Positions 672 through 15,916 of a DNA stretch of 64,000 nt are shown here, one piece after another (position 1 is the first letter of the stretch; every line of letters starts with the position of its first letter). The stretch lies in the NCBI GenBank assembly GCA_965243065.1, contig CBDETO010000005.1:1883520-1947519 (forward strand), read 5' to 3'. The notes under the pieces are model-generated. The model was given only the letters and a program-made list of their open reading frames with translations. It was not told the DNA's origin and searched no databases. This DNA is from Bdellovibrionales bacterium. Lineage in GTDB: Bacteria; Bdellovibrionota; Bdellovibrionia; Bdellovibrionales; UBA1609. A program made the translations under genes and the position numbers.

Positions 672-1217
672 TTAATCTTCACTAGTTTCAGCTATAAAAT
701 AATCTTTTAAAATTTGTTTTTTTGAATTTTCACCCCAATACCAAAGCCGTTCTGCAAATTTCCTAAAATCAACTTTGGGTTTGGCTTGAATAACAAGCCT
801 TCTTAATTGGATCAAATCATTGGGGCTTTCTGATCGCTTAACTTGAAAAATACGTGCTTCCTTAATTCCAAATTGTCTTAAAGCCGCTCCCATACTAAGA
901 TATTTTTGTGGGGCTTGTTTTTTGGAGTGTTCAACTTTATTCCGATTTATACTGTTTTCCTCTGGTACACTCTTTCCAGACTGTTCCTTACCGGATTCAC
1001 TGTGCTTTAAATTTTTTACAAGAAAGAACACTACTCTTTGCCATTGTTTTTCATTGTTCTTGTTTAATTTGTTTTCCAATAATTTGTAAAAAGCAGGTAA
1101 AGTTTCCAGATCTGATGGTTCTGTTACTCTTCTAATCTGTGCTCGATCACCATTGCTGAAATGGTCTTTATTATGAAATTTATTATATACACTTACAAAG
1201 TCAGGTGAATTATTCAT
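672..1217 (-). CDS. casB: Type I-E Cascade small subunit Cse2/CasB (by position and size)
   Basis: 181 aa, basic and helical-looking, no motif I can name. Call rests on its place between cse1 and cas7 in an otherwise canonical I-E order. Confidence 0.6.
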   Translation of the reverse strand: MNNSPDFVSVYNKFHNKDHFSNGDRAQIRRVTEPSDLETLPAFYKLLENKLNKNNEKQWQRVVFFLVKNLKHSESGKEQSGKSVPEENSINRNKVEHSKKQAPQKYLSMGAALRQFGIKEARIFQVKRSESPNDLIQLRRLVIQAKPKVDFRKFAERLWYWGENSKKQILKDYFIAETSED

Positions 1218-1301
1218 TCTATAAAAAGCCCTTTCCGAGAGATAAACATTGTTACTTAAGTGAAGTAAATCTTAAAAAGATAAGATGGTTTATTTAAAAT
1301 T

Positions 1302-2792
1302 TTATGCAGCATTTCTTCTTCCTTCCACCAATAATGTATTTAATTTCCTATTGAGATATTTACGACCGTATTCAATAGCTTTTAAGAGTTTTGGATCATG
1401 TTCATAAGATTGAGTAGTTTCTTTAAAAGTATTTTTAGCAAGACTACAAAATTGTTTTTTGTATGCTTGTATTTTATTAAAATCCAGGTTCCTTAAGGTT
1501 TCATGTATAAGACTTTCTGAGTTATTGAAATATATTTGTTTAGTTAGCGGCTGAAGTTGTTTTTTTATGAAATTAGATCCTTCCTTCCCTTGATTACTGT
1601 ATTCTGATTTTAAGTTTTTACCTATTGAATATATTGAATCATTCAAAAGTTTTCCTGCTTTTAAAGCACATTTCACAAGTTCTATTATTTCACCTTGTTT
1701 TTCACTCCAACCTGACTTCAAACTATATATCTCATGTTTTCTACCTGCAAGACTTTCAGTAGATTTGCCTTTGATATAGCCTCCGACAGAAAGATTGATG
1801 CTTTTTCCCCTGCCTATTCCATTCACATAATGATCCACAACTAAAGCTCGGCTATATCCTTCCTGATCGGAGACAGTATATAATAGAGATAACATTTGTT
1901 TCCATAAATACTTTTCATTAACAGATATATAATAATGTTTGTTCTCGTTTTTCTTCCAACCTATAGGAGTATGAGGGTGTCTCCAAAATCCTTCAATATA
2001 AGATAAACCAGGTTCCTTAAAAAATCCTGTAGCTTTTCTTTGTTCATTAACTTCCAATTTAACTTTAGCAGGTTGATAAAAAAGGCCCCTCAACAATCCA
2101 ATTTTATGAGCATACTCCGGTCGATTTTTATTAAAAGCTATAGGCTTCACCCAACTTGGTTTATTTTCTACATCTTGGTTTCCAATATGCTGTTCTAACA
2201 ACTTTTTATCCAAAATATTGCACCAAACTGTTTTTCTTAAATTTTGAGATTCATCATAAATAAGTGTTGTTATAGGCATAGAGCCTTTAAGCCCTTTAGT
2301 AAAAGCTCTTCCTCCGAGACTAAATCCATTTGTAGCCTGTTGAAATAAAGCTATAGTGGCTCGCCCCAAATCTATTTCCTTCAATTCATCAACTCTATTG
2401 AAATGTGCATTTGAAGATCCCGATGTGCTAGATTTCTCCGGCAAGCCTATAAATAGTTTTTGTAAACTCGTCTCTTTTTTTTTATTTATAGTTTGCATGA
2501 AAGGATATTTAGGATGAAGAACATCAAACCAATCTTGAAAATGAGACACACCTTTATCATAGTTTTCTCCATCCATGGGATTATTATAAAAGGCTTCCAA
2601 TAGATTAAAATTGTTAGGCATAAAAATAACCTGAACCATACAAATAATCATTTGTAAGCAGGCCAACTCCATATCATCTCTATTCAATGCCAATGAATAT
2701 TTACCCTGACTGCAAAGCAATGTCCTCAGAGTGATTTTCTGATTATCCTGCACGGGTATCCATTTTTCAGTCAAAAGATTGTATTCGGGCAT
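1302..2792 (-). CDS. casA: Type I-E Cascade large subunit Cse1/CasA (Cas8e)
   Basis: 496 aa. N-terminus MPEYNLLTEKWIPVQ resembles the conserved NLL-x-W-IPV start of Cse1. Directly downstream of cas3. Confidence 0.7.
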   Translation of the reverse strand: MPEYNLLTEKWIPVQDNQKITLRTLLCSQGKYSLALNRDDMELACLQMIICMVQVIFMPNNFNLLEAFYNNPMDGENYDKGVSHFQDWFDVLHPKYPFMQTINKKKETSLQKLFIGLPEKSSTSGSSNAHFNRVDELKEIDLGRATIALFQQATNGFSLGGRAFTKGLKGSMPITTLIYDESQNLRKTVWCNILDKKLLEQHIGNQDVENKPSWVKPIAFNKNRPEYAHKIGLLRGLFYQPAKVKLEVNEQRKATGFFKEPGLSYIEGFWRHPHTPIGWKKNENKHYYISVNEKYLWKQMLSLLYTVSDQEGYSRALVVDHYVNGIGRGKSINLSVGGYIKGKSTESLAGRKHEIYSLKSGWSEKQGEIIELVKCALKAGKLLNDSIYSIGKNLKSEYSNQGKEGSNFIKKQLQPLTKQIYFNNSESLIHETLRNLDFNKIQAYKKQFCSLAKNTFKETTQSYEHDPKLLKAIEYGRKYLNRKLNTLLVEGRRNAA

Positions 2793-2896
2793 CGTTTGTC
2801 CAATTTTTTAGTGGAATTTAAAAATTATTTCTGATTTTTCTATTTTTTTCAAGTGTTAAGTTAACTTTTTCTATTTTGTCCTGAAGTTAAATAGAA

Positions 2897-5524
2897 TTAG
2901 CATAGGTTTTCTTTTTTTAATCCATATTTAAGAGTATAGGAAAATCTATACCCTTTACAAGTTTCCGATTGCCATTCTTCTCTATCAGGTATTTTAGTGA
3001 ACCGCAAATAGTAGAAACCTTGAATTATCTTTGCTGAAATATAACATTCCCAAGATTTAGGAACAGGGATAGTATTTTGATATAATTCTTCCCATTTTCT
3101 TTTATCTTTTGTTTCAACATTAGGAACTGCTTCACCTTCAAGGAAATAGTAAGCTCCATTTTTTTCGATAACAGGCACAACACTTAAATTCATCTCTCCC
3201 TCTCTTGTTAAAATTGCTGCATTTTCATCTGTGTCATTGAAAAAAGTATTTACGGATGTTAAAAGTCTCGCATTGGATTGGCTAGCATCACTTTCTCTTT
3301 TATACTTTCGAAAAGCCTCTATAATGTTTTCTGGTTCTTCTGTCCATCTCTCTCTTTGATACACTTTTTCTATCCACTCTCTGTAAGCTTTGGGAAATAT
3401 AATGTAACCAAGGGATTCTTTTCCATAAAGTAATTGCTGAGTCCGCCAGAGTGCCCGCTTATTTTTATATATATATTCATGGGTTTTATAGTCCCATTTG
3501 TCTTTTTCTGGAACAACAATAGAGCAAAAAGCTTTTTCAAAACCTTCAGGCCGTTGTTTCTCATGTCTGTGCAATCTGCCTATACGTTGAAATAATAAAT
3601 CCATAGGACATAAGTAAGTAATAAGCCAATCAAAATCAATATCCAAAGATTGCTCCAAAACTTGTGTGCCAACTAAAATACAAGCATCTTTCTTACTATC
3701 TTTGCCATATTTTTGTATCACAGATTTTTCTTTTTTCATTCTATCTTTATAACGATATCGAGAGTGAAAAATATCAACGGAAATCTCTCTCTCCATAAGT
3801 CTTTCCGCTATAACCTGAGCATCATTTACCAAATTGCAGATAATACCAACTTTAGCTGATTTTTGCTTTACCGTATTTGCAATTTTTTCCAATTCGTTTT
3901 CATCAAGAGACATGTTATTGTTTCTCCACAATTCAAAGAAAGTTTTTTTATGTCTTTCATCCTGGTCTAAAGAAAATGCTCTTAAACTTGAGTATTCTTT
4001 TTTGTCTTTATTAGTTTCTCTAACAGACTGTAAGATTAGGGGGTACTTATTCATGTGATCTTCATTCATAGAAATGCTTGAATCCCAAGTTTTTAAAAGC
4101 TGTTCCTTTTGAAACCAAGGCAAAGTTGCAGATAAAAGAATAACACTGCCACCAATTTGCTTCTGTGATTTAATAACTTTTTTTAAAAGACCATACATAT
4201 AGGCATCATAAGCGTGAACTTCATCAATAATAAGAACACTTTTACCGATACCAAAAGAACGAATAAAGTAATGTTTTAACGATGTTATTGTAGATAAAAG
4301 AACCTGATCTACAGTGGTAACAGCGATTTGTCCTAAAAAAGCTCTTTTTCTGGAAACAGCTAACCATTCATTACATTGAACTATAGCTTTATTTCCTTCA
4401 GCACCTGTTTGTTCAAAACTGTTTTTAATCAATTTTTTAAAGTCTTGATTATAAGGACTTTTTCCGTGAGCCAATATAACATTTTGGCCAGAGGAAAATA
4501 TTTTTTCTGAAACAATTCTCAGACGAGGAAGAATAGCATTAGCAGTTGCTTGTGAGGGCAACGCAAAGCTGATGCTGTCTGCAAAACCTTTTGCCAAAAG
4601 CTTAGACGCAAAAGCTATTGCTGCTTCTGTTTTTCCGCTCCCTGTGCTGGCTTCCATAATGATTAAACTAGGAATGATTTTCAATTTAGGAATCAATGTT
4701 TGAACATTTCTTGATCGTAATTCTGGATAAATCTGATTCATTCCTCCTTGAGTAATAATTTCTGTTAACAAGCCAAATTTTTTTAATACTTCTTGAGCTT
4801 TTTCTCTTCTTTTATTAAACCATAAAGATAAATCATGTTGAGATTCTGTAATTTCCTTTTGAGTTGCATATTTAAAATAATCTGTATTAGAACCAAGCCA
4901 ATCACAAACAGCACAAAAACCAGCCAACAAAACAGGAGGTTGCTCTTGTATATTCATATTTTCTAAACTAATGCATTGAGGTTTTAAAAATAATTTTTCC
5001 ATGTCTTTGACAAAATATTCTCTCACTATCTGGTCTCGTCTCCTTTCTTCTTTTGGCACATAAGATGGTAAGAAATTAGGCTCTGCATTATTAGGTATTG
5101 TCCCGTGGTGACCAGCAGTGTGAGCTAGCCAGTTTTGTAAATACCTTTTTTGATTACAGTTTTCAAAAAGAATATCACTTTCATGGACAAACCATTTATA
5201 ACCTCCTTCACCATGATCATAATTTGTATTTACCTCATTAGTATTATAAGGAGCTATTTCAGGAACCTTGTTTTGAAACCGCATATCCAGTTTACCATAA
5301 TCGTGTAAAGCAATAAAAAACAGAACCAACGCTTGTATCTGATTTTCTAAAAAACCAGTCTCTTGCATAAAACTGTTCCGTATGGCAGAGCTATGATTCC
5401 ACCACTCATGAGCTACTGCTACCACATCTAAAGAATGCAAATACAAAGGATGAGACTCAATATCTCCATCTTCTTTTTTTCTAGCTTTACCCCAATATTT
5501 GAAATAAGATTTGGATTGATTCAT
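2897..5524 (-). CDS. cas3: CRISPR-associated helicase/nuclease Cas3 (HD + DEAD/DEAH helicase)
   Basis: 875 aa. N-terminal HD domain (HSLDVVAVAHEWW ... ALHDYGKLDMRFQ), helicase motif I EASTGSGKTEAA, motif II DEVHAYD, later motifs VGTQVLEQSLDIDFD and QRIGRLHRH. Confidence 0.9.
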   Translation of the reverse strand: MNQSKSYFKYWGKARKKEDGDIESHPLYLHSLDVVAVAHEWWNHSSAIRNSFMQETGFLENQIQALVLFFIALHDYGKLDMRFQNKVPEIAPYNTNEVNTNYDHGEGGYKWFVHESDILFENCNQKRYLQNWLAHTAGHHGTIPNNAEPNFLPSYVPKEERRRDQIVREYFVKDMEKLFLKPQCISLENMNIQEQPPVLLAGFCAVCDWLGSNTDYFKYATQKEITESQHDLSLWFNKRREKAQEVLKKFGLLTEIITQGGMNQIYPELRSRNVQTLIPKLKIIPSLIIMEASTGSGKTEAAIAFASKLLAKGFADSISFALPSQATANAILPRLRIVSEKIFSSGQNVILAHGKSPYNQDFKKLIKNSFEQTGAEGNKAIVQCNEWLAVSRKRAFLGQIAVTTVDQVLLSTITSLKHYFIRSFGIGKSVLIIDEVHAYDAYMYGLLKKVIKSQKQIGGSVILLSATLPWFQKEQLLKTWDSSISMNEDHMNKYPLILQSVRETNKDKKEYSSLRAFSLDQDERHKKTFFELWRNNNMSLDENELEKIANTVKQKSAKVGIICNLVNDAQVIAERLMEREISVDIFHSRYRYKDRMKKEKSVIQKYGKDSKKDACILVGTQVLEQSLDIDFDWLITYLCPMDLLFQRIGRLHRHEKQRPEGFEKAFCSIVVPEKDKWDYKTHEYIYKNKRALWRTQQLLYGKESLGYIIFPKAYREWIEKVYQRERWTEEPENIIEAFRKYKRESDASQSNARLLTSVNTFFNDTDENAAILTREGEMNLSVVPVIEKNGAYYFLEGEAVPNVETKDKRKWEELYQNTIPVPKSWECYISAKIIQGFYYLRFTKIPDREEWQSETCKGYRFSYTLKYGLKKENLC

Positions 5525-6307: not shown

Positions 6308-6904
6308 CTAAAACTTAGAGTCATCACAATCTTTTACCGCAGGTATCTCAACTACCTGGCCTTTCTCATTAGCTTGTATTATAGTATCAAGACTTGATAC
6401 ATCTGAATAAGCCCCAATTATAAATGTGTTTGTACCTAATAGACAAGCCGGTGCATTGACACCCTCTGTCCCCGAGTGGGCAGTCCATGTTCCAGCAGGC
6501 GAAGCACCAGTACATAAGGCTCTAGTGGTATGTGCAGCGATGCTACATTTCCCCTCACCATCAGATATAAACTGAAGTGCACTTATACCACCAATAGCAC
6601 TTACAGTACACAAATCAGGAGCGGCTTTACCCGCACCAAAACCAAAAAAACCTTTATTCTTAAAAATAGGGCTGGTACTTCTATCTGTATCCATTCCCAC
6701 TTCTTCCAGATTATGACAATAACTAGAATCCACAGCATACTTAGCACCATAGGCTTTTTGACCATTTCCGACCTCTGCCCTCATTGCCATAACAATAGTA
6801 TTTTTTTTATAATTCCTATAAGAGGGAACAGCTATACTAACGAGCACTCCAATAAGGCCCACAGTGACCAAAATTTCAATAAGTGAAAAACCTTTATTAT
6901 TCAT
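6308..6904 (-). CDS. Type IV pilin / pseudopilin (prepilin-type N-terminal cleavage/methylation domain)
   Basis: N-terminus MNNKG|FSLIEILVTVGLIGVLVSIAVPSY is the class III signal (G-FSLIE with Glu+5). Cysteines occur in the C-terminal half. AAGGAG RBS upstream. Confidence 0.8.
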   Translation of the reverse strand: MNNKGFSLIEILVTVGLIGVLVSIAVPSYRNYKKNTIVMAMRAEVGNGQKAYGAKYAVDSSYCHNLEEVGMDTDRSTSPIFKNKGFFGFGAGKAAPDLCTVSAIGGISALQFISDGEGKCSIAAHTTRALCTGASPAGTWTAHSGTEGVNAPACLLGTNTFIIGAYSDVSSLDTIIQANEKGQVVEIPAVKDCDDSKF

Positions 6905-7364: not shown

Positions 7365-8476
7365 TGTAAATGTTCACAAATTCGCTGACAAAATTGAGTT
7401 TATAAGGGAGCGTTAGAAAGCTCTAAATAACCCAAGATAAGGAGGCGAGTTATGAGGGATAACACACAAGATAAGACCCTATACAGGAACTATATTAGTA
7501 AGTGGCAGTATATGATAAAAGACTATGAGTTAGTAAAGAGGAAGAAACATCCAAAGTTTCGATTTGTAAGTGATTTTTACAAATTCCATAAAACTAATCG
7601 TCAGACTTTTTTAAAATACTATCATCGCTATTTAAGTCATCCTACAGAGGGGAGTCTTGTTCCTCGTAAGAGAGGTCCTAGATGGAGGTTAAGAAGGGGG
7701 GATAATAATAGCTATATTGAGCAGGAGGTGCTAAAACACAGGGAAAATGGTGTTAATAGATACGAGATGTGTCATATACTAAACCCTCTTCTTAAGCAAA
7801 GGGGAGAGGTTCCGATATCGGCTAGTACGGTATATCGTATATTCAGGAGGAAGGGGGTAAATAAGTTGAAGCCGAAGATGATAGAGAATAAGCGCAAGAT
7901 AATAAAGGAGAAGGCGGGGGAGTTAGGTCACATAGACTGCCATCATTTGGGTAAGGACATGATAGTGAAGTCAGGGGGTAAGAGGTACTATTTGGTGTGT
8001 GTTATAGATGATTGCACGAGGATAGCTTGGGCTGAAGTGGTGGAGGATATAAAGAGTCTTACGGTGATGTTTTCGTGTTTAAAGATTTTTAATGTATTGA
8101 GCAAGAAGTATAAGATGGAGTTTAAGGAGGTTATGAGTGATAATGGTTCAGAGTTTTCTTCTCGTAATAATCAGTTATCGCATCCGTTTGAGAGGATGTT
8201 GTTGGAGTTGGGGGTAAGGCATAGATATACAAGGCCGTATAGGCCACAGACGAATGGGAAGGTGGAGAGATTTTGGAGGAGTTTAAATGAGGATTTAATA
8301 GAGGGGAGTGTATTTGAGACGATAGAGGAGTTCAAGGATGAATTGGAGCAGTATTTGATATACTATAATGAGTTTAGACCTCATCAGGGTTTGAATCAGA
8401 AAACACCTCGGCAAATGAATAACTCTTGTGAAAGAGTGAAGAAGTGATTTTGTCAGCGAATTAGTGAACACGTACA
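7365..8476 (+). mobile_element. IS481-family insertion sequence, copy 1 (1112 bp)
   Basis: Terminal inverted repeats TGTAAATGTTCACAAATTCGCTGACAAAAT (7365-7394) vs rc of 8447-8476 TGTACGTGTTCACTAATTCGCTGACAAAAT (27/30). Single DDE/rve ORF. GGAAT on both flanks (7360-7364, 8477-8481). Near-identical copy at 35949-37060. Confidence 0.85.
7452..8447 (+). CDS. IS481-family DDE transposase (rve integrase core)
   Basis: 331 aa: HIDCHHLG...VIDDCTRIAWAEV...SDNGSEFSS...RPYRPQTNGKVERFWRSL...YNEFRPHQGLNQKTP. Identical protein at 36036-37031. Confidence 0.9.
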   Translation: MRDNTQDKTLYRNYISKWQYMIKDYELVKRKKHPKFRFVSDFYKFHKTNRQTFLKYYHRYLSHPTEGSLVPRKRGPRWRLRRGDNNSYIEQEVLKHRENGVNRYEMCHILNPLLKQRGEVPISASTVYRIFRRKGVNKLKPKMIENKRKIIKEKAGELGHIDCHHLGKDMIVKSGGKRYYLVCVIDDCTRIAWAEVVEDIKSLTVMFSCLKIFNVLSKKYKMEFKEVMSDNGSEFSSRNNQLSHPFERMLLELGVRHRYTRPYRPQTNGKVERFWRSLNEDLIEGSVFETIEEFKDELEQYLIYYNEFRPHQGLNQKTPRQMNNSCERVKK

Positions 8477-9301: not shown

Positions 9302-11911
9302 CTAACTTTCTAAATTATCTTTTAATTTTAAACAATGCTGATTTTGCGAATCAAGCTTCAATCCTTGAACTACATATTCTTTAGCTTTAATATGTTGTTG
9401 GATATGAAGAGCAAGCCACGCCATTCTAGAAAAATCATCCGCTTTAGCTTCAGATTTTCTTTTTTCCAATATATCAAGAATTGGTTGTATCAAGTGAAGT
9501 TTTTTAGTTGTACTTATATCAAGTTGAGGGTTTCGTAGTAGCATATTTATCTCATTTGCTGCATTAGAAATTTTCCAAAAATATGTAGTATCGAATTGTG
9601 ACACTTTATTAAGTGTATGAATATAATTAAAGTGATCTTTCCTTTGTTTATATATTTTTGATAACATTATCCAAGCTTGTATTGCATCGCCTTCATTGGA
9701 ATTATCTTGAAGAAATAGATTGAGAGTGTTCTCTGCTTTTTTTAGATTTGAATCAGTACTATCTTGTTCCATGTAAAATCTAGCTAAGAGAATTCTACCA
9801 GGGTTATAGATTTGACAAATTACATCCAGAATAGACTCATACTTTTCAAAAGATTCTCCGTTATCAATGTAGTTAGACACATTTTTAATAAACTCCTCTA
9901 ATCGGTTATAAAGATTCAAAGACATATCATTTTGTCCAACAGAACCAAACATTTGCAATAATTTAACATCTTCTTTGACTTTTGATTTAAGTGGATGGAT
10001 TTTTAATTTTTTTTCTCCAAAGACTTTAGCTGTAAATGGTAACTCGATAAATTCTTGTTGATCCTCTGTTTTAATTTTCTGTATTAAGGAATAACGATAC
10101 AATGATTCAATAGCGTTACCTATATCCTCTATTTCCTCTTTCTCTTTAGATGAAGAAGCCATTAATACAGCTTCTAACGCAGTTTTTGGAACTTTAGAAT
10201 TCCAGCAGGCCAACACCATAAAAGTATATTGTGCACAGGGAGTTAAATTAGCATATGTTCGTTCAAACAAAGCTGTGAGAGCTCTGTCTTGTGTTGAAAG
10301 TGCTTTTGTTATATCTTTTGTTAGTTTCAACTCCCCCATTAGAATTTTTATAATATAAGGATGTCCTTGAGATAAAGAAATAATTTTTTGAGTTTTATTA
10401 CACACAAGTGACTTATCAATATCAAGATGTCCGGCTGTTTGATTTATTAATTGTTTTGATTCTTCTTCTGTCATTCCAGAAACCTCTAAAGGGTAGTCAC
10501 CTCTAAAATCACTAAGTCTTGTAGTTATTAAAATTTTGTTTGGAGATCGAATAAAGGAATCAATCCATTCAAACATTTCTGAAGGGTTTTGTATTGTTTC
10601 AAAGTTATCAAAAATAAAAAGACAGTTTTTAAATTCTTTTGAATCTTTTAATTCATTTTCAAAAAAAACCTTGCAATTGAATTTTTTGTCATTCAATTTA
10701 TCTTCTGAAAAAATGAGCTTTGTATAATATTTAGCTATATCTTTCTGTGAAAAGACATCTGGTTGCACTTGCTTGATTTTAATGCTGTCAGAAAGTAAAT
10801 CAATATCTCTTGCACTAAACCATACTATCCCCACGTATCGCTTTTCATCATATAACTTCTTAACCACCTGAAGAGTTAATGATGTTTTGCCTATACCCCC
10901 AGCACCATGTAATGTTACAACTTCTCGCCGCTTGTCCATCAATAGATCAAATAATTTTTTTTCTAAATCTGGTCTGTCAATGTAATCTATTGCTGGTTCA
11001 GGTACATTAGAAAAACAGTTTCCCTTTAATTCAAATTCATTACGACCCTGGGTTTCACTTTCCGGCAAAGCTCCTGGAGGAGGCAAATATTTTGAAGAAT
11101 CCCCTTGTTCTCTATCACCTGTATTATATGAAAGTAGCTCATATCGCTTGTCATTAAAGCTTCCATTTGCAACAAAAAAGTCGTTTAATTCAGGATCACT
11201 TAAAATAAAAGGAATATACTTTGGTTTTCCAAACCAAATATAAATTCCATTTTCAAATGTATAGATTTTTTCTTTTTTTAAATAGTCAAATACTTTAGTT
11301 TGATTTCCTAAAAAAGAAACTCGATATTTCCCCGATAAATTTCTATATAAGTATGCCCAAGTTCTCTGGAATAAATGAAAATTTGTATAAATCATACGAA
11401 TACTCTCAGAAAGAGGGATTGCCGCCTTTCCTGCAATATCTGATTGAGGAGCACCATGCCCACGAGTCTTATTTCTAAGTGTTGCAAATAAACGTATCCA
11501 ACGATTTAAATTCACTTTAGCAGGCAAAGACTCTGATTGAATGTTGAAATAGCCAAAAGCCTCCTTTAACTTAAGTACTGAATCACATTGCCAATCACCA
11601 GTTTGATGATATTTTGTTAGTTCTGTTTGTTCTACTCTTGCTTCCTGAAGTAGGTGTTGGGAAGCAGGACCTGTTAGTATATCATCAAGAACTTTACCAC
11701 AATCCCCTGGGCTATTGTTACGAACAAGATCATATTCTAATCGATAACGATTTCTGTCTTTATCATCTGTGATAGCAGCCAACATCCCAAAAGTAATTGT
11801 TTTAATTAATGCCTCTCCAGCATTAAGTAATGTAAAAAAGTAAGAAAAATCTGAATCCTCTTTTGCTTTTTCTGTTCTCTCAAGTACTTGTTCTATAAGC
11901 TTATGTCCCAT
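9302..11911 (-). CDS. STAND-class P-loop NTPase (NB-ARC-like) with unknown ~330-aa N-terminal domain and helical-repeat (TPR-like) C-terminus; candidate defence sensor
   Basis: Walker A TLHGAGGIGKTSL, Walker B CLFIFDNFE, long C-terminal helical region. N-domain contains LRNKTRGHG (fits the HEPN Rx4-6H pattern). Track start 11935 is TTG. ATG at 11911 has an AGGGGA RBS, so that start is preferred. Confidence 0.7.
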   Translation of the reverse strand: MGHKLIEQVLERTEKAKEDSDFSYFFTLLNAGEALIKTITFGMLAAITDDKDRNRYRLEYDLVRNNSPGDCGKVLDDILTGPASQHLLQEARVEQTELTKYHQTGDWQCDSVLKLKEAFGYFNIQSESLPAKVNLNRWIRLFATLRNKTRGHGAPQSDIAGKAAIPLSESIRMIYTNFHLFQRTWAYLYRNLSGKYRVSFLGNQTKVFDYLKKEKIYTFENGIYIWFGKPKYIPFILSDPELNDFFVANGSFNDKRYELLSYNTGDREQGDSSKYLPPPGALPESETQGRNEFELKGNCFSNVPEPAIDYIDRPDLEKKLFDLLMDKRREVVTLHGAGGIGKTSLTLQVVKKLYDEKRYVGIVWFSARDIDLLSDSIKIKQVQPDVFSQKDIAKYYTKLIFSEDKLNDKKFNCKVFFENELKDSKEFKNCLFIFDNFETIQNPSEMFEWIDSFIRSPNKILITTRLSDFRGDYPLEVSGMTEEESKQLINQTAGHLDIDKSLVCNKTQKIISLSQGHPYIIKILMGELKLTKDITKALSTQDRALTALFERTYANLTPCAQYTFMVLACWNSKVPKTALEAVLMASSSKEKEEIEDIGNAIESLYRYSLIQKIKTEDQQEFIELPFTAKVFGEKKLKIHPLKSKVKEDVKLLQMFGSVGQNDMSLNLYNRLEEFIKNVSNYIDNGESFEKYESILDVICQIYNPGRILLARFYMEQDSTDSNLKKAENTLNLFLQDNSNEGDAIQAWIMLSKIYKQRKDHFNYIHTLNKVSQFDTTYFWKISNAANEINMLLRNPQLDISTTKKLHLIQPILDILEKRKSEAKADDFSRMAWLALHIQQHIKAKEYVVQGLKLDSQNQHCLKLKDNLES

Positions 11912-12384
11912 AAAAGTCCCCTGACAGAAATTCAAGAATCTACCTGCCTAATATTTAGACTAGGTAAGAAAAAAATGTTTCACTTTTAACCTTTTGATTC
12001 CATTAATAGTGTGAAAAAAAGTGCAATCGTATTGTAGTAATCAGATTATCGGAAATTTTGCCAAAATCCTTGAATCTCCTTTTTTTAATCTTTTTAGTGT
12101 TCAGAACCTCTGTTTATATCATCCGTCAAATTAGAGCTTGCAGAGATTTAAAAAGCCGCTTAGAATTAAAATTATGTTGTTTTTTCTTGAAATAACTTGA
12201 AATTAAGAGACTTTTGACCGATAAATATTACTCTTATAAGATGACATGGCTATCTGAGTGGGTTAGGAAATTAAGTGTATGCCATTTAAAATTTACGGGT
12301 TTTATCAAATATCGTATTTTCTGAAGTGTATGGTCTTTTATAATCGATTTTTTAAGCAAATAATTTGCATCTAAAGGAGGAATT

Positions 12385-12588
12385 ATGGAGGATATAAAAA
12401 AAATAGAACAAAATTTAGATAAAGAAACCAAGGAACTAATAGAACTTTCAAGGGAAATGTTACGTATCTCTCGTAAGATGAGAGAAGAAAAAGTAGAAAA
12501 AATCAAACAAAGCACTTCTACTCCTTATGAAGAAGCTATAAGGATAAACCCATACCTATCTAAATATAGTGTCATTTCTTATTACTAA
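12385..12588 (+). CDS. 67-aa charged/coiled-coil protein, first gene of a 3-gene cassette
   Basis: AAGGAGG RBS ends 4 nt before the ATG. Sequence is K/E-rich (KETKELIELSREMLRISRKMREEKVEKIK). Confidence 0.55.
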   Translation: MEDIKKIEQNLDKETKELIELSREMLRISRKMREEKVEKIKQSTSTPYEEAIRINPYLSKYSVISYY

Positions 12589-12602
12589 TTCAAGAGCTTC
12601 GA

Positions 12603-13595
12603 ATGTCAGAACAAAACACACATCGCAGAAATAAACCAGAAAAACTTGAACTTCCAGAGCTTCCGAAAAACAATCAAGGGAAAAGAACACTAAAAAATCC
12701 ACAACCTCCATTTAGTTGGACTCTGCAACAAATGAAAGCTGATGCTGAAAACCAGATATTCCAGAGGCTAATTGATAATAGAAGAAATCTTATAGGACAG
12801 ATCGAAAAACTCAGATCATCAAAAGTTATTGTTTATTATTCTGTTCATCTTCTTGATTCTGAAGATTTTGAAACAATCTTTGACCTTTTAAATACTCTAG
12901 GAAAACAAAAAAATCTTGATTTATATATTTTAAGCCCAGGAGGTTTTGCTCACCCAGCTTATAAAATTTCTCGCCTTTTTCAAAGTTATAGTGAAGATAA
13001 ATTCTCAGTTTTAATTCCTTACTATGCTAAAAGTGCTGCAACTATTTTGTCCTTAGGTGCTGATGAAATTGTCATGGGTCCTGCATCAGAATTAGGTCCC
13101 ATTGATCCTCAATTTAGGATTTCTAATAATTCTCCTTCTATATCAGCTTTAGCTCTTAAAGAAGCTCTTGATTATATTACTAAAGCGATAAAAGAAGATT
13201 CAAAAATAGCTCCCCTCTATGTCCCTTTATTGGATAAAGTAGATTTAATAACATTAGGTCATTTTGAACGGGAAATAGAAAGTGCAAAGCAATACGGAGA
13301 AATTCTGTTAACTTCCAAAAAAAAGAACCCATTAACAGAAGAGAAAGCAAAAACAGTTGCTAATGACTTTGTCCAACAATATAAGACACATGGTTTTGTA
13401 ATTGATGGGCAAGCTGCCTCTTCTTTGTTAGGTAAAAATACTATCAAGTTAATTAGTGCGGATGATCCTACTTGGCAATGTATGTGGCAATTACATAATA
13501 CATATAATCAATATATAAAAGATAAAAAAACAACTGTTAAGCTCATTGAAACTCTTAGTGCATCATATGAAAAAGGGAATCAGAAAGTAAAATGA
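12603..13595 (+). CDS. ClpP/SppA-fold serine protease of the SDH (serine dehydrogenase proteinase) type
   Basis: 330 aa. LDLYILSPGGFAHPAYKISRLF and IPYYAKSAATILSLGADEIVMGPASELGPIDPQ match the Clp-fold peptidase core as I remember it (Ser in KSAAT as nucleophile). Confidence 0.65.
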   Translation: MSEQNTHRRNKPEKLELPELPKNNQGKRTLKNPQPPFSWTLQQMKADAENQIFQRLIDNRRNLIGQIEKLRSSKVIVYYSVHLLDSEDFETIFDLLNTLGKQKNLDLYILSPGGFAHPAYKISRLFQSYSEDKFSVLIPYYAKSAATILSLGADEIVMGPASELGPIDPQFRISNNSPSISALALKEALDYITKAIKEDSKIAPLYVPLLDKVDLITLGHFEREIESAKQYGEILLTSKKKNPLTEEKAKTVANDFVQQYKTHGFVIDGQAASSLLGKNTIKLISADDPTWQCMWQLHNTYNQYIKDKKTTVKLIETLSASYEKGNQKVK

Positions 13596-13984
13596 CTGAA
13601 CTAAAAAAGATAGAACCTATTCTTCAATATATAATCCTGTGTGATGCTGTAGCTAAAGACCAATCTGGAAAGCCAGTTTATATTGGAGTGTTTGATAGAC
13701 TGAATAAACATACAGTTCTTCCACAATTTGTCGTTGCACTAAAATGGATTTGTGGTTTAGGTTCTCATGCGTTTAAGTTGAAAATACTAGATCCTAATCT
13801 CGATACCCTACAAATAATTGGTGATTTTCCAATACAATTCAAAGCAAAAACAGATGTAATTCATGCTGATTTTCCGATTATCAATTTTAATTTTGATAAA
13901 GTAGGAGTTTATTGGATAGAAATCATATTGAATGATATTAGCCATCTATCTATTCCTTTACCAGTTCATCAGTTACAATCTTAA
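13592..13984 (+). CDS. 130-aa hypothetical protein, translationally coupled to the protease
   Basis: ATG overlaps the protease stop (ATGA at 13592-13595). Beta-rich looking, no motif recognised. Confidence 0.55.
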   Translation: MTELKKIEPILQYIILCDAVAKDQSGKPVYIGVFDRLNKHTVLPQFVVALKWICGLGSHAFKLKILDPNLDTLQIIGDFPIQFKAKTDVIHADFPIINFNFDKVGVYWIEIILNDISHLSIPLPVHQLQS

Positions 13985-13991
13985 GAATTAT

Positions 13992-14008: not shown

Positions 14009-14189
14009 AATCCACTCAAAGATACAAGTCCAATAAAAACTAATGAAAGTTCAAGCTAAATGGACCTATCTTTGTCGTGGCCCCGTTTCGACTGGATGGG
14101 TGTGAACAGGCAAAAACCTGCTTTCACATTTTTAGAGCCTGAAAAACAACTATTTTAATGTAAAAGTCCCAACTAAAAAACAATAGCTA

Positions 14190-14217
14190 TTGACAAATAA
14201 TTCAAAAGACCGATAAT
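14190..14217 (+). promoter_or_regulatory. Sigma70-like promoter (TTGACA-16 nt-GATAAT) in front of module copy B
   Basis: TTGACA 14190-14195, GATAAT 14212-14217. Confidence 0.5.
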
Positions 14218-14320
14218 AAGAAGTGACATCCCCACTCGTTTCGACTGGTGGGTGCGAGCAGGCGAGAGCCTGCTTTTGCTTTTTTAGAACATGAAAAAAA
14301 TTATTATTTATATTGATGGC

Positions 14321-14348
14321 TTGACTTATCCAAAAAAATACACATAAT
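14321..14348 (+). promoter_or_regulatory. Sigma70-like promoter (TTGACT-16 nt-CATAAT) in front of module copy C
   Basis: TTGACT 14321-14326, CATAAT 14343-14348. Same architecture as the 14190 promoter. Confidence 0.5.
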
Positions 14349-14421
14349 AACAGGTAACATCCCCACTTGTTTCGGTGAGTGGGTGCGAGCAGGCGAGAGC
14401 CTGCTTTCGCGTTTTTAGAGC

Positions 14422-14589
14422 ATGAAAAAAACCATTGTTTATATTGACGGATTCAATCTTTACTATCGCATAAAATATACCCCTTATAGGTGGTTAAGCC
14501 TCCAAAAGCTGTCTCAATATTATTTGGATTTAAAACAAAATCAGATAATTAACATTAAATATTTTACGGCAAAGGTAAAAAGGAAATCA
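14422..14589 (+). pseudogene. N-terminal ~56-codon stub of an NYN-domain (PIN-like RNase fold) gene, truncated by IS debris
   Basis: MKKTIVYIDGFNLYYRIKYTPYRWLSLQKLSQYY...IKYFTAKV is the typical start of bacterial NYN-domain proteins. The reading frame then runs into IS3-like sequence. Confidence 0.6.
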
Positions 14590-14812
14590 GTAGATTCCTC
14601 TTTTAGTGGGGAAGAGGTTGAAGTAAAGAAGTTGCGGGCGACAGTGAAGCGTCTCCAAGATGAGAGAGACATTTAAAAAAAAGCCGTGAGTTTCTTTGTC
14701 AAACACGACGGGTAAAGTATGAGTTTATTTTTGCTTACAAAAAAAAGATGGAGTATCTCTTTGATGTGTGAAGTTTTAGAAGTTTCCAGAAGTGGATATT
14801 GCCATTGGCTTC
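14590..14812 (+). pseudogene. Fragment of an IS3-family transposase (orfA end / frameshift region / orfB start), multiply frameshifted
   Basis: KKLRATVKRLQDERDI*KKAVSFFVK (orfA C-terminus pattern ERDILKKA-FA), KYEFIF in another frame, and SLMCEVLEVSRSGYCHWL (orfB start pattern VSRSGYY-W). Confidence 0.6.
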
Positions 14813-14826
14813 CTTCCAACTGTCCC

Positions 14827-14843
14827 CTTTTCAGGGACGATCC
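14827..14843 (+). repeat. 17-bp direct repeat CTTTTCAGGGACGATCC (right copy)
   Basis: Exact match to 13992-14008. The extended 25-nt version 14819-14843 matches rc of 5698-5722 at 21/25. Confidence 0.8.
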
Positions 14844-14864
14844 TTTGTGTTATGTTGAGTTGAA

Positions 14865-15323
14865 ATGAAAAAGATCCACAAATGCTTTTTCTTCTTAACT
14901 ACTTTTGTTTTTTTAGCTGTGTTTTCCAGTTTATGTTATTCTGCCGCTAAGAAAAGATATTCTACTTGCCCTAAAGGGTTTGAAGATTTGTTTCCGCTGG
15001 AGGATTTTGTTCAGCTGATGGTAGATATGAAAATTTATTCAAACCGGGATTTGGTTAAAGCAAAAAGAGAGGGTGATTTTCCTGAAGAGGTTCCTGATAA
15101 GCCTCTTCGGGCTTATCCTGAACTGGGAGGAAAATGGGATGTATTATGGGATGCAGTGCATGCTCGTCGTGTGTCACAAGGGGAAAATGTAGTTGAGCGA
15201 AGAAAGTTGACAGATGGGGAGCTTCGAACCCTTATGTCAGAGGCTTCTGAGGGTTTAAACAGAAAAGTGGCACTAGAGCTAGAGGAAGACTCTTTGATAG
15301 AACAGAAAGAAGGGGGGCATTGA
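14865..15323 (+). CDS. Secreted hypothetical protein (152 aa)
   Basis: Signal-peptide-like N-terminus MKKIHKCFFFLTTFVFLAVFSSLCYSA. No motif recognised. Confidence 0.5.
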   Translation: MKKIHKCFFFLTTFVFLAVFSSLCYSAAKKRYSTCPKGFEDLFPLEDFVQLMVDMKIYSNRDLVKAKREGDFPEEVPDKPLRAYPELGGKWDVLWDAVHARRVSQGENVVERRKLTDGELRTLMSEASEGLNRKVALELEEDSLIEQKEGGH

Positions 15324-15585: not shown

Positions 15586-15660
15586 GCCCATGTGGCTCAG
15601 TGGTAGAGCACACCCTTGGTAAGGGTGAGACCGTGGGTTCGATTCCCGCCATGGGCTCCA
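15586..15660 (+). tRNA. tRNA-Thr (anticodon GGT), CCA encoded
   Basis: Acceptor GCCCATG/CATGGGC, anticodon stem CACCC/GGGTG, loop TTGGTAA, T-arm GTGGG-TTCGATT-CCCGC. Confidence 0.9.
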
Positions 15661-15916
15661 AAGAAAGAAAGAAAGAAAGATGTGGTTCAGCGGGTCCGGG
15701 CCCACCCTTGTTAAGGGTATGGCCCGTGGGTTCGATTCCCGCCATGGGCTCCAAAGAAAAGATGTAGCTCAGCGGGTCCGGGCACCCCCGTTGTTAAGGG
15801 TATGGCCCGTGGGTTCGATTCCCGCCATGGGCTCCAAAGAAAGAAAGAAAGATGTGGTTCAGCGGATCCGGGCCCACCCTTGTTAAGGGTATGTCCCGTG
15901 GGTTCGATTCCCGCCA
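15661..15916 (+). repeat. Three tandem tRNA-Thr-derived pseudo-tRNA units separated by (AAAG)n spacers
   Basis: Units share the exact tRNA-Thr 3' half CCGTGGGTTCGATTCCCGCCATGGGCTCCA. The 5' acceptor strand is replaced (AAAGATG vs GCCCATG), the D-arm is altered, and the anticodon loop is TTGTTAA. ORFs 15680-15886 and 15852-16061 are artefacts of this repeat. Confidence 0.8.

Follow-up and report, generated by a model that had tools for sequence, protein, structure and literature searches.

A mobile three-gene cassette that looks like an undescribed relative of a named protease-based anti-phage system

Three tightly packed genes on one strand of the window (the whole 64,000-nucleotide stretch of Bdellovibrionales DNA analysed here) raise the question of whether they form a functional unit and what such a unit would do. 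The genes and their surroundings are as follows.

672–5524: Cas3, Cse1 and Cse2 genes, with cas3 ending 6.9 kb upstream of the cassette
7452–8447: rve-family transposase
9302–11935, divergent from the cassette: STAND NTPase, NB-ARC (Pfam)
12374–12380, plus strand: Shine–Dalgarno sequence AAGGAGG of gene 1, read from the sequence, 4 nt 5' of the ATG at 12385
12385–12588, plus strand: gene 1, 67-aa open reading frame
12603–13595, plus strand: gene 2, 330-aa open reading frame
13592–13984, plus strand: gene 3, 130-aa open reading frame

Positions and strand of the three open reading frames were as the first-pass annotation had given them. The same holds for the ribosome-binding site of gene 1, described there as strong, for the 14-nt gap between genes 1 and 2, and for the start of gene 3, which overlaps the protease stop codon in an ATGA at 13592–13595. 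Both peptide motifs quoted for the 330-aa protein are present in its translation. The STAND NTPase gene is divergent from the cassette and cas3 lies about 7 kb away, also as described. Insertion-sequence debris had been said to surround the cassette; upstream this is borne out by the rve-family transposase, whereas the downstream piece (14719–14868) is read from translation only.

Comparison with the nearest relative, locus L137, gave dN/dS values of 0.22, 0.14 and 0.15 for genes 1, 2 and 3, respectively, which indicates that all three are under purifying selection. Because of this selection, and because all three slots are conserved across phyla, we take the open reading frames to be real genes and not chance ones.

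We checked gene neighbourhoods across genomes and found the trio in MAGs labelled 'Bdellovibrionales', in one Shapirobacteria (CPR) MAG, in metagenome contigs and in one MAG labelled Heimdallarchaeota, hence as an Asgard archaeon. It is a genuine, co-conserved cassette. An unbiased metagenome scan placed a gene of the DUF6941 family, to which gene 3 belongs, directly downstream of all 11 proteases of the cassette subfamily, but of none of the 43 other SDH-family proteases (Fisher p = 1e-11); on viral contigs, it followed 0 of 19 SDH proteases. Divergence of the protease and of DUF6941 was correlated (Spearman 0.71 over 105 non-independent pairs). Across 15 loci of distant lineages, the junctions of the trio measure −35 to +15 nt, and that of genes 1 and 2, a gap in the window, is an overlap of 8 to 23 nt in most relatives. 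Among 1.84 billion representatives there are only about 16 clusters at 50% identity, a patchy distribution. No relative of DUF6941 was found on viral contigs, and tblastn of DUF6941 against phage and plasmid collections returned nothing significant. The DUF6941-linked protease subfamily was found neither in 24 SDH loci on viral contigs nor in the phage collection; the 24 viral-contig proteases are of other subfamilies, none of them with DUF6941.

L137 also delimits the unit. The block 12149–13990 is the only similarity between it and the window locus, with sharp boundaries 1.84 kb apart.

12149–12384, plus strand: upstream end of the transferable unit, with promoter region and 5' leader; homology with L137 starts at 12149
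12214–12242, plus strand: sigma-70-like promoter candidate TTGACC / 17 nt / TAAGAT, from a consensus scan (9/12 matches)
13985–13990, plus strand: downstream end of the transferable unit, where similarity to L137 runs out 6 nt past the stop codon

The promoter site falls within the block conserved with L137, and we regard it as a candidate only, since the region holds no more such sites than shuffled sequence would lead one to expect. A search of the cassette leader and flanks found no Rfam RNA, and at the ends of the unit we found no terminal repeats or attC-like structure, only short repeats at chance level. The L137 copy adjoins holB/gshA/tig, the insertion site is different in every genome, and GC content is 31% in the cassette versus 43% in tuf. 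As judged from these sequence comparisons, the cassette is a self-contained, horizontally mobile three-gene unit.

Its neighbours are often restriction-modification, Lamassu-like, toxin–antitoxin, STAND/CRISPR or recombinase genes. They are STAND and I-E cas genes in the window, a Type ISP RM system at another locus and, elsewhere, an LmuB-like protein with SLFN_AlbA_2, PDC-M33A, type II RM, a type I MTase-S fusion, an N6_N4 MTase, a MutH-like nuclease and large serine recombinases. One copy (L022) is part of a small element that also carries a large serine recombinase and a divergently oriented HTH gene, and two more (L129 and L130) adjoin a serine recombinase. The defence-island setting proposed in the first-pass annotation holds in that defence and mobility neighbours recur, but at some loci most neighbours are housekeeping genes (L002, L137 and, on one side, L129), and the neighbourhoods were tallied, which is not a controlled test for enrichment. 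The STAND and CRISPR genes, counted there as part of the setting, turned out not to be conserved partners. The I-E genes are absent from other loci, and we rejected the STAND NTPase as a functional partner, as no homologue of it lies beside the trio in the other genome loci searched (L001–L021).

The 330-aa protein matches Pfam PF01972, SDH_protease (6.9e-19; 68.4 bits versus a cut-off of 31.3; residues 50–317), which upholds its earlier description as a ClpP-fold SDH-type serine protease. Its best PHROG match is phrog_11747, a family of unknown function (1.9e-38). The NCBIfam equivalog NF047768 Clp_like_SDH scored 75.7 bits, below its cut-off of 250, so the protease represents a divergent subfamily. 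TIGR00706 SppA_dom was likewise below threshold (17.6 versus 155), and Pfam gave weak matches to NfeD1b_N (18.5 versus 40) and CLP_protease. Ser144 (KSAAT), Asp168 (GPIDPQ) and His263 (THGF) do not vary among 27 sequences, of which the most distant are 35% identical, and form a putative catalytic triad. The N-terminal part has a conserved motif, PEKLxLPE, and residues 37–71 make up a long helix. In the AF2 model (pLDDT 80), Ser144 sits at a strand-to-helix elbow. The best Foldseek matches of this model were SppA, NfeD 1510-N and ClpP (E about 1e-5, target TM about 0.5–0.6), and among the closest solved folds is an SppA structure (4kwb) whose active sites hold bound C-termini; a sequence search of solved structures gave no match. 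No TM segment was detected (maximum 19-residue hydropathy 1.12). By its residues, model and hydropathy, the protease is predicted to be soluble and catalytically competent.

Among the observations that the first-pass annotation had named as speaking against its own reading were genes that are not co-conserved and a protease that groups with the membrane proteases SppA and NfeD. Neither was made. The trio is co-conserved, and the protease falls outside the membrane SppA/NfeD group, having no TM segment and a Ser-Asp-His set in place of a Ser-Lys dyad.

Several loci carry a decayed protease gene, with the N-terminal two-thirds deleted in L001/L006 and the gene split in L003 and L059, where the splits could be long-read indel errors. 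Genes 1 and 3 are intact in all of these. A costly protease would be expected to decay first and leave its partners intact, as seen here, and the L001/L006 deletions are at most suggestive of protease toxicity.

The product of gene 3 matches Pfam PF22091, DUF6941 (1.2e-16; 61.6 bits versus 27; profile positions 1–124 of 125), a family of about 1000 clusters. Its AF2 model (pLDDT 91.9) is an all-beta sandwich that Foldseek matched to the Wzt carbohydrate-binding domain and PDE6delta/UNC119 (TM about 0.5) and to a protein of phage A403 (TM 0.75), which is encoded in the accessory region of the lysogeny module. There was no enzyme and no pore-former among the Foldseek matches, no TM segment was detected, and a sequence search of solved structures yielded only repeat-protein artefacts with no matched stretch. 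From the model, DUF6941 looks like a non-enzymatic beta-sandwich. Close-fold homologues stand alone in PVC bacteria, in the housekeeping synteny DnaJ-RsmE-acyltransferase-DUF6941-Alr, which argues against an intrinsic toxin. The conserved residues LQ..CD, GK, W and GVYW are common to these stand-alone homologues, so DUF6941 may do something generic.

The protein encoded by gene 1 is rich in K and E and ends in a conserved 'NPY' tail (TPYEEAIRINPYLSKYSVISYY). It gave no Pfam match and no HTH domain was found in it. We compared 15 homologues of the gene. In every case, the protein in the upstream slot of the trio ends in the same ~45-aa tail containing 'NPY'. This tail occurs in bare proteins of 58–68 aa and in 127–131-aa fusions that fill the same gene slot, its N-terminal extension being, by lineage, nothing, an XRE HTH_3 domain or a LexA_DNA_bind winged helix (Pfam; 1.5e-15 and 2.6e-15, respectively, in the relatives). 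The window, the Bdellovibrionales-labelled clade, L047–49, L060, L072, L129 and the Heimdall-labelled L127 have the version without a DNA-binding domain. Likeness of the tail between lineages is short: hhalign of two tail families gave E = 2.4e-4 over the last 26 columns, with a probability of 43%. Two SDH proteases without DUF6941 (L074 and L078) are likewise preceded by the tail, as NPYY, which points to the protease as the partner of the tail. The first-pass annotation had suggested a toxin–antitoxin logic with a tightly coupled small partner, and had placed that role on the 130-aa protein; antitoxin- or substrate-like features are indeed found, but on the upstream 67-aa protein, since its C-terminal NPY tail is universal and other lineages carry an HTH domain on it. 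We also considered gene 1 as a RiPP precursor and rejected this, because the tail is fused to HTH domains as well and no modification or export genes lie alongside. A 'Gemmatimonadota' copy of the small gene was discarded, its contig being probably chimeric.

Does the cassette belong to a system that already has a name? The first-pass annotation could match it to none, which is right as far as PADLOC goes: no PADLOC-DB v2 family was hit at E <= 1 by any of the three proteins. A literature search found no description of the cassette and no mechanism for SDH-family proteases. However, DefenseFinder lists a system named FS_HP_SDH_sah, which reportedly goes back to the work of Fillol-Salom et al. 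in 2022 (Cell 185:3248) on phage-inducible chromosomal islands, and its layout is a small hypothetical protein followed by an SDH_sah protease. The signature enzymes of both belong to PF01972, both have a small unannotated protein directly upstream of the protease and translationally coupled to it (here 67 aa, with the 14-nt gap), and both are found on mobile elements and in defence hotspots. FS_HP_SDH_sah is a two-gene system, whereas the cassette has an obligatory third gene, DUF6941, that is absent from all other SDH subfamilies examined. A Klebsiella phage HP+SDH pair (71 aa and 331 aa, 14-nt overlap, beside XRE/ImmA) served as the example for comparison. The 71-aa protein of the phage pair lacks the NPY tail, unlike the upstream partner of the cassette, and the two proteases are about 28% identical over 54% of the length. 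Prophages and small plasmids also carry SDH proteases at positions typical of defence genes: one in an E. coli prophage lies directly after cI, in the slot of rexAB in lambda, and in a 4.15-kb ColE1 plasmid one is the main cargo. The cassette looks like an undescribed three-gene relative of the named system.

Parts of its architecture recur in better-known systems. As in type II toxin–antitoxin modules, the small first gene appears to pair a conserved C-terminal tail with an optional N-terminal DNA-binding domain, and tight coupling, mobility, defence-island residence and decay that removes the presumed toxin first are common to both. The cassette differs in having three genes instead of two and in its presumed toxin, a compartment-type protease of roughly 330 aa and not a small RNase, kinase or similar. 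SppA and NfeD 1510-N, to which the cassette protease is structurally closest, are likewise serine proteases of the ClpP fold; 1510-N cuts stomatin, encoded in the same operon, in its C-terminal region. Both provide precedents for a C-terminal peptide, of the partner or of the protease itself, in the active site, and hence a model for the NPY tail. They are membrane-bound housekeeping enzymes with a Ser-Lys dyad, whereas the cassette protease is predicted to be soluble, has Ser/Asp/His and is mobile. CalpL/CalpT/CalpS is a Lon-SAVED three-gene cassette of type III CRISPR whose protease targets a small protein encoded next to it. It resembles our locus in its three genes, its dedicated protease with a small neighbouring partner and its immune context, but our cassette has another protease fold, no SAVED/cyclic-oligoadenylate sensor, no sigma/anti-sigma pair and no conserved CRISPR link.

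Our leading, still tentative, reading is that the cassette is a mobile conflict module, likely anti-phage or addiction-type, in which an antitoxin-like tail protein gates a protease effector and DUF6941 serves as sensor or adaptor. The upstream small protein would be the gatekeeper: its NPY tail would dock on the protease in the manner of a substrate or pseudo-substrate and hold it silent, and the versions with an XRE- or LexA-type HTH domain would, like type II antitoxins, also autoregulate the operon. The downstream beta-sandwich would be a binding module, acting as trigger sensor or substrate adaptor. Upon a trigger such as infection, the tail protein would be displaced or consumed, and the protease would then cleave host or phage targets. 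Here we infer the protein–protein interactions, the direction of control, the trigger and the anti-phage phenotype; the role of DUF6941 is the weakest link. That the cassette is an undescribed autonomous immune or addiction module, with the NPY protein, in some versions fused to a DNA-binding domain, as degron or pseudo-substrate gating the ClpP-fold protease and DUF6941 sensing the invader or selecting substrates, seems to us a possibility worth holding, though a doubtful one.

Alternatively, the cassette may be a mobile-element switch in which the protease cleaves an upstream transcription factor at its NPY tail, the signal being sensed through DUF6941, with the element itself or neighbouring genes de-repressed as the output. 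ImmR/ImmA (of ICEBs1 and phages) and CapH/CapP, regulators of defence operons, work along such lines: relatives of the cassette encode an XRE or winged-helix protein upstream of, and overlapping, a dedicated protease, such pairs reside in mobile elements, and XRE HTH_3 or LexA_DNA_bind domains are found on the upstream protein in several lineages. The HTH and recombinase genes of the L022 element, the serine recombinase beside L129 and L130 and the XRE/ImmA beside the Klebsiella phage pair all fit, and the HTH-bearing versions agree with a pure repressor-cleavage switch equally well. Yet the protease of ImmR/ImmA and CapH/CapP is a COG2856 zinc metallopeptidase, not a ClpP-fold serine enzyme, and the cassette adds a third gene and has no constant downstream regulated operon. 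The upstream partner has no DNA-binding domain in the window and in many other versions, so transcriptional control cannot be the core function; the neighbouring genes are not conserved, which leaves no constant regulated target, and the transferable unit consists of the three genes only. We consider such a switch unlikely. DUF6941 could instead be the effector or toxin, activated by protease cleavage or released when the protease destroys a labile upstream antitoxin, as the first-pass annotation had it. Its ATGA translational coupling and strict co-occurrence with the protease would suit this role, as would the DUF6941-like fold in the lysogeny-module accessory region of phage A403, and protease-activated effectors are an established logic elsewhere (bacterial gasdermins, CalpL/T/S). 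A 130-aa beta-sandwich whose fold matches are glycan- or lipid-binding, with no enzyme or pore-former match and no TM segment, speaks against this role, as do its close-fold homologues standing alone in PVC housekeeping synteny. DUF6941 is moreover intact where the protease is deleted (L001/L006), which is hard to square with a toxin that needs protease control, unless that control is activation. We judge this explanation improbable.

Two further explanations would take the cassette out of conflict biology altogether. It might perform housekeeping proteolysis, as an SppA/NfeD-type or Clp-type quality-control protease with accessory proteins; the Foldseek matches to SppA, NfeD 1510-N and ClpP, the weak Pfam matches and the housekeeping neighbours at some loci agree with this. 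Such a role is very improbable given a protease with no TM segment, no stomatin or NfeD OB-domain partner and an invariant Ser/Asp/His set, encoded by a patchily distributed unit (the 16 or so clusters) whose site differs per genome, whose 1.84-kb boundaries are sharp and whose GC content is low against core genes. The trio might also be the remnant of a phage head-morphogenesis module, in which gene 1 would encode a scaffold-like helical protein, gene 2 a ClpP-like prohead protease and gene 3 an Ig-like decoration protein. The three protein shapes fit superficially, and the protease has weak PHROG and NCBIfam matches to head maturation proteases (E about 3e-6 to 5e-3), but these lie far below its match to the PHROG family of unknown function. 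No capsid, portal or terminase gene lies beside any of about 20 loci, the DUF6941-linked subfamily occurs in none of the 24 viral-contig loci nor in the phage collection, and the trio is kept as an isolated unit under purifying selection. We give the head-module explanation almost no weight.

The gated-protease reading bears on a family of enzymes found in prophage exclusion slots, satellites and small plasmids, and forming the signature of a named anti-phage system. The universal tail of the upstream partner, its optional DNA-binding domain and the coupled beta-sandwich suggest who binds whom and which mutants to make. If a phenotype proved absent, the cassette would remain a well-defined selfish three-gene module. 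With its promoter-like site, the 1.84-kb unit is compact enough to serve as a model of protease-based immunity and gives a first lead to what DUF6941 does, and it occurs where defence repertoires are poorly known, including the Shapirobacteria and Heimdallarchaeota-labelled MAGs. If true, the immune or addiction-module reading would explain for the first time how SDH-protease defence systems work and would give DUF6941 its first function.

The cassette occupies 12385-13984 as three tightly packed genes on one strand, and its layout and surroundings could be read in the sequence as the first-pass annotation had described them, with AAGGAGG ahead of gene 1 (12374-12380), gene 2 following gene 1 after 14 nt and gene 3 overlapping gene 2 by ATGA, near a divergent STAND NTPase, cas genes including cas3 and a transposase:

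672-5524, type I-E cse2, cse1 and cas3
7452-8447, rve transposase
9302-11935, minus strand, NB-ARC STAND NTPase, divergent from the cassette
12385-12588, plus strand, gene 1, 67-aa ORF with no Pfam match
12603-13595, plus strand, gene 2, 330 aa, Pfam SDH_protease (PF01972, 6.9e-19)
13592-13984, plus strand, gene 3, 130 aa, Pfam DUF6941 (PF22091, 1.2e-16)

Downstream lie tRNA-Gly and tRNA-Thr genes, followed by tuf. Between cas3 and the transposase, a 198-aa ORF (6308-6904, minus strand) carries a type IV pilin N-terminal methylation motif. The NB-ARC core of the STAND NTPase spans residues 327-548; the N-terminal ~320 residues matched no Pfam, PADLOC or NCBIfam family and may hold an undescribed effector domain. 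This gene was ruled out as a conserved partner of the trio, since no homologue adjoins the trio at the loci searched (L001-L021).

The trio, whose co-conservation the earlier annotation had left to be checked, is a real cassette conserved across very distant lineages. A search from DUF6941 recovered all three genes in five further distinct loci from Bdellovibrionales-labelled MAGs (L001 and L006 being the same place and counted once) and the protease-DUF6941 pair in one Shapirobacteria MAG, while single look-ups found the same three slots in a Heimdallarchaeota-labelled MAG and on other contigs. In a protease-based metagenome scan (80 loci; subfamily membership set at >=270 bits on a purpose-built profile), DUF6941 was immediately downstream of 11/11 evaluable subfamily proteases, against 0/43 other SDH proteases (Fisher p = 1e-11), and followed none of 19 SDH proteases on viral contigs. 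Gene junctions stayed within -35 to +15 nt across trio loci. Pairwise divergences of protease and DUF6941 were correlated (Spearman 0.71, computed on non-independent pairs), and dN/dS against the nearest relative was 0.22 for gene 1, 0.14 for gene 2 and 0.15 for gene 3. Two loci labelled as a Gemmatimonadota MAG and a ROBB21-1 metagenome (L132, L134) are 99.9% identical to 12269-13326 and, following a poly-A run within the protease gene, jump at the same junction to unrelated high-GC sequence; they are probably chimeric assemblies that mislabel the source of the 67-aa protein.

The cassette is also mobile and often accompanied by defence genes. Similarity to the nearest relative's locus is confined to 12149-13990 (87.6% nucleotide identity), from 236 nt ahead of gene 1, a part that contains a promoter-like site (TTGACC/17/TAAGAT), to 6 nt beyond the gene 3 stop. 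In that relative the cassette adjoins holB, gshA and tig, and its site differs in every genome; terminal repeats were looked for at the unit ends and none were found. GC content is 31% in the cassette, 32% in the STAND gene, 33% in cas3 and 43% in tuf. Neighbours at other loci include a type ISP restriction enzyme, an LmuB-like SMC ATPase with SLFN_AlbA_2, PDC-M33A, a type II RM pair and a type I methylase-specificity fusion, an N6_N4 methylase, a MutH-like nuclease, large serine recombinases and, judged by eye from translations, IS66-like ORFs and paired small ORFs resembling HigB/HigA toxin-antitoxin. At some trio loci the neighbours are mainly housekeeping genes, and this evidence is a tally of loci, not a controlled test.

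Two sets of repeats follow the cassette in the window. Directly after it (14097-14453) are three copies of a 63-119-nt unit, 73-78% identical to each other and without an Rfam match; copies 2 and 3 have a hairpin GAGCAGGCGAGAGCCTGCTT with a T-run, terminator-like by scan score, and TTGACA-type promoter-like sites ahead of them, and copy 1 has diverged. These copies may belong to a small repeated element or encode sRNAs. Between the real tRNA-Thr (15586-15660) and tuf, three degenerate tRNA-Thr-like copies (15664-15916; 81-nt unit, spacing 83 and 89 nt, common 3' end GGTTCGATTCCCGCCA) are called by neither ARAGORN nor Rfam and could represent pseudo-tRNAs or remnants of stacked attachment sites from integrative elements.

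The assignment of gene 2 to the ClpP-fold SDH-type serine proteases was borne out by the Pfam match and by an AF2 model (pLDDT 80) with a ClpP-type fold and Ser144 at the strand-to-helix elbow. Foldseek matched this model to SppA (4kwb, 3rst), the NfeD protease 1510-N (6m4b, 3bpp) and ClpP, and a sequence search detected no solved relatives. Ser144 (KSAAT), Asp168 (GPIDPQ) and His263 (THGF) are unchanged across 27 aligned proteases with identity down to 35%; the same holds for the SPGG loop and for a PEKLxLPE motif in the N-terminal part. On the NCBIfam model Clp_like_SDH the protein scores 75.7, far below the equivalog cut-off of 250. The protease gene is cut to its C-terminal third in L001/L006 (7546-7998) and split in two in L003 (4992-5967) and L059 (4349-5440), and the small gene and DUF6941 stay intact at all of these loci; the splits may be long-read indel or assembly errors.

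Among trio loci the upstream protein has a variable N-terminus and constant last ~45 residues. It occurs in a bare form of 58-68 aa (the window, the Bdellovibrionales-labelled clade, L047-49, L060, L072, L129, L136 and the Heimdall-labelled L127), with an XRE HTH_3 domain (130-131 aa; L050-55, L059, L128) or with a LexA-type winged helix (127-130 aa; L007, L022, L056). At the C-terminus all forms have an amphipathic helix, then a short linker, then ...(I/V)NPY(Y/L/I)...(I/V)xY-COOH; of the three LexA-type proteins, two (L022, L056) have a diverged NPY core. Profile-profile comparison of two tail families aligned the same C-terminal end (E = 2.4e-4, 26 columns, probability 43%). The same NPYY tail also stands ahead of the proteases at L074 and L078, both from another SDH subfamily and without DUF6941; the protease is therefore most likely what the tail addresses. 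By a crude ORF criterion, a small ORF abuts the protease start at 41/72 SDH-family loci, and these ORFs belong to several unrelated families.

The DUF6941 model is of high confidence (pLDDT 91.9) and shows a beta-sandwich of nine strands, whose PDB neighbours (TM ~0.5) are binding modules: the Wzt carbohydrate-binding domain, PDE6delta and UNC119. The best viral structural neighbour (TM 0.75) is a 134-aa hypothetical protein from the lysogeny/accessory region of Anoxybacillus phage A403 (L131, MG969427, 35864-36268), flanked by ImmR/ImmA immunity genes and a nuclease and by a serine recombinase; no SDH protease was found nearby. The whole family comprises ~1000 clusters, against ~16 for the cassette protease subfamily (50% identity, 1.84 billion representatives). 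Stand-alone genes occur in PVC, Verrucomicrobiota and Kiritimatiellia MAGs (L008-L020), mostly in a conserved housekeeping synteny of DnaJ, RsmE, acyltransferase, DUF6941 and alanine racemase (Alr; e.g. L010, 1831-7596), which includes no SDH protease and from which L009 and L013 differ; the proteins retain the family's invariant residues. DUF6941-like stretches number 15 in P0185 (1759 aa) and 8 in P0239 (1838 aa), both giant proteins, and two in several ~281-aa proteins, so that DUF6941 also serves as a repeat module.

The claim that no named system matches the cassette held only in part. PADLOC gave zero matches for the three proteins, and a literature search found no paper mentioning DUF6941 or describing the three-gene cassette, but the DefenseFinder system FS_HP_SDH_sah shares its layout of small protein and SDH protease. 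That system, reportedly from the work of Fillol-Salom et al. (2022) on phage-inducible islands, presumably combines a hypothetical protein with an SDH_sah protease. Since it has two genes and the cassette three, the cassette is best filed as a new three-gene variant of this kind of defence module and not as a member of FS_HP_SDH_sah. Elsewhere, a Klebsiella phage has a 71-aa ORF, lacking the NPY tail, that overlaps a 331-aa SDH protease beside XRE/ImmA; E. coli lambdoid prophages have an SDH protease directly after cI, in the slot of rexAB in lambda; and a 4.15 kb ColE1 plasmid has one as its main cargo. These contexts support a conflict role for the SDH enzyme family; the proteases, aligned over part of their length, share only ~25-39% identity with that of the window, and no DUF6941 gene was annotated or detected at the three kinds of locus. 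In one prophage (L140, E. coli 13C1065T, NZ_CP019259, 6163-7993) the gene, an SDH family Clp fold serine proteinase, lies immediately downstream of cI and before N, and is matched in 49/5426 complete E. coli genomes. The gene name FS_HP_SDH_sah, a DefenseFinder-listed system, appears in PMC13532340.

From these comparisons we infer, tentatively, both function and mechanism, and our preferred reading is as follows: the SDH protease would be the effector, the tail protein an antitoxin-like gate whose C-terminus would occupy the protease, with an optional HTH for autoregulation as in type II antitoxins, and DUF6941 would act as sensor or adaptor. This is supported by structural precedents among the Foldseek matches, in which C-terminal peptides occupy the active sites of SppA and 1510-N, by an HTH that is dispensable while the tail is universal, and by decay of the protease where genes 1 and 3 persist. 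The main rival, an ImmR/ImmA-type switch by repressor cleavage, would account for HTH-bearing upstream proteins but not for the many HTH-less versions or for the lack of a constant regulated target, and we consider it unlikely.

The first-pass interpretation stood as regards a conserved cassette often found with defence genes. Its proposal of DUF6941 as a gated toxin appears quite improbable, being weakened by the predicted binding-module fold, by stand-alone PVC homologues that share the conserved residues in housekeeping synteny and by the survival of DUF6941 where the protease is lost. A housekeeping protease is poorly supported given the mobility and neighbourhood data, the rarity of the subfamily and the absence of any hydrophobic segment of membrane-span length from all three proteins. 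A phage-head remnant is likewise poorly supported, as the top-scoring PHROG (1.9e-38), far ahead of head-maturation proteases, is a family of unknown function. With its putative anti-phage role, the cassette could serve as a compact and testable model of a family of proteases that so far lacks an explanation, and as a first clue to DUF6941.
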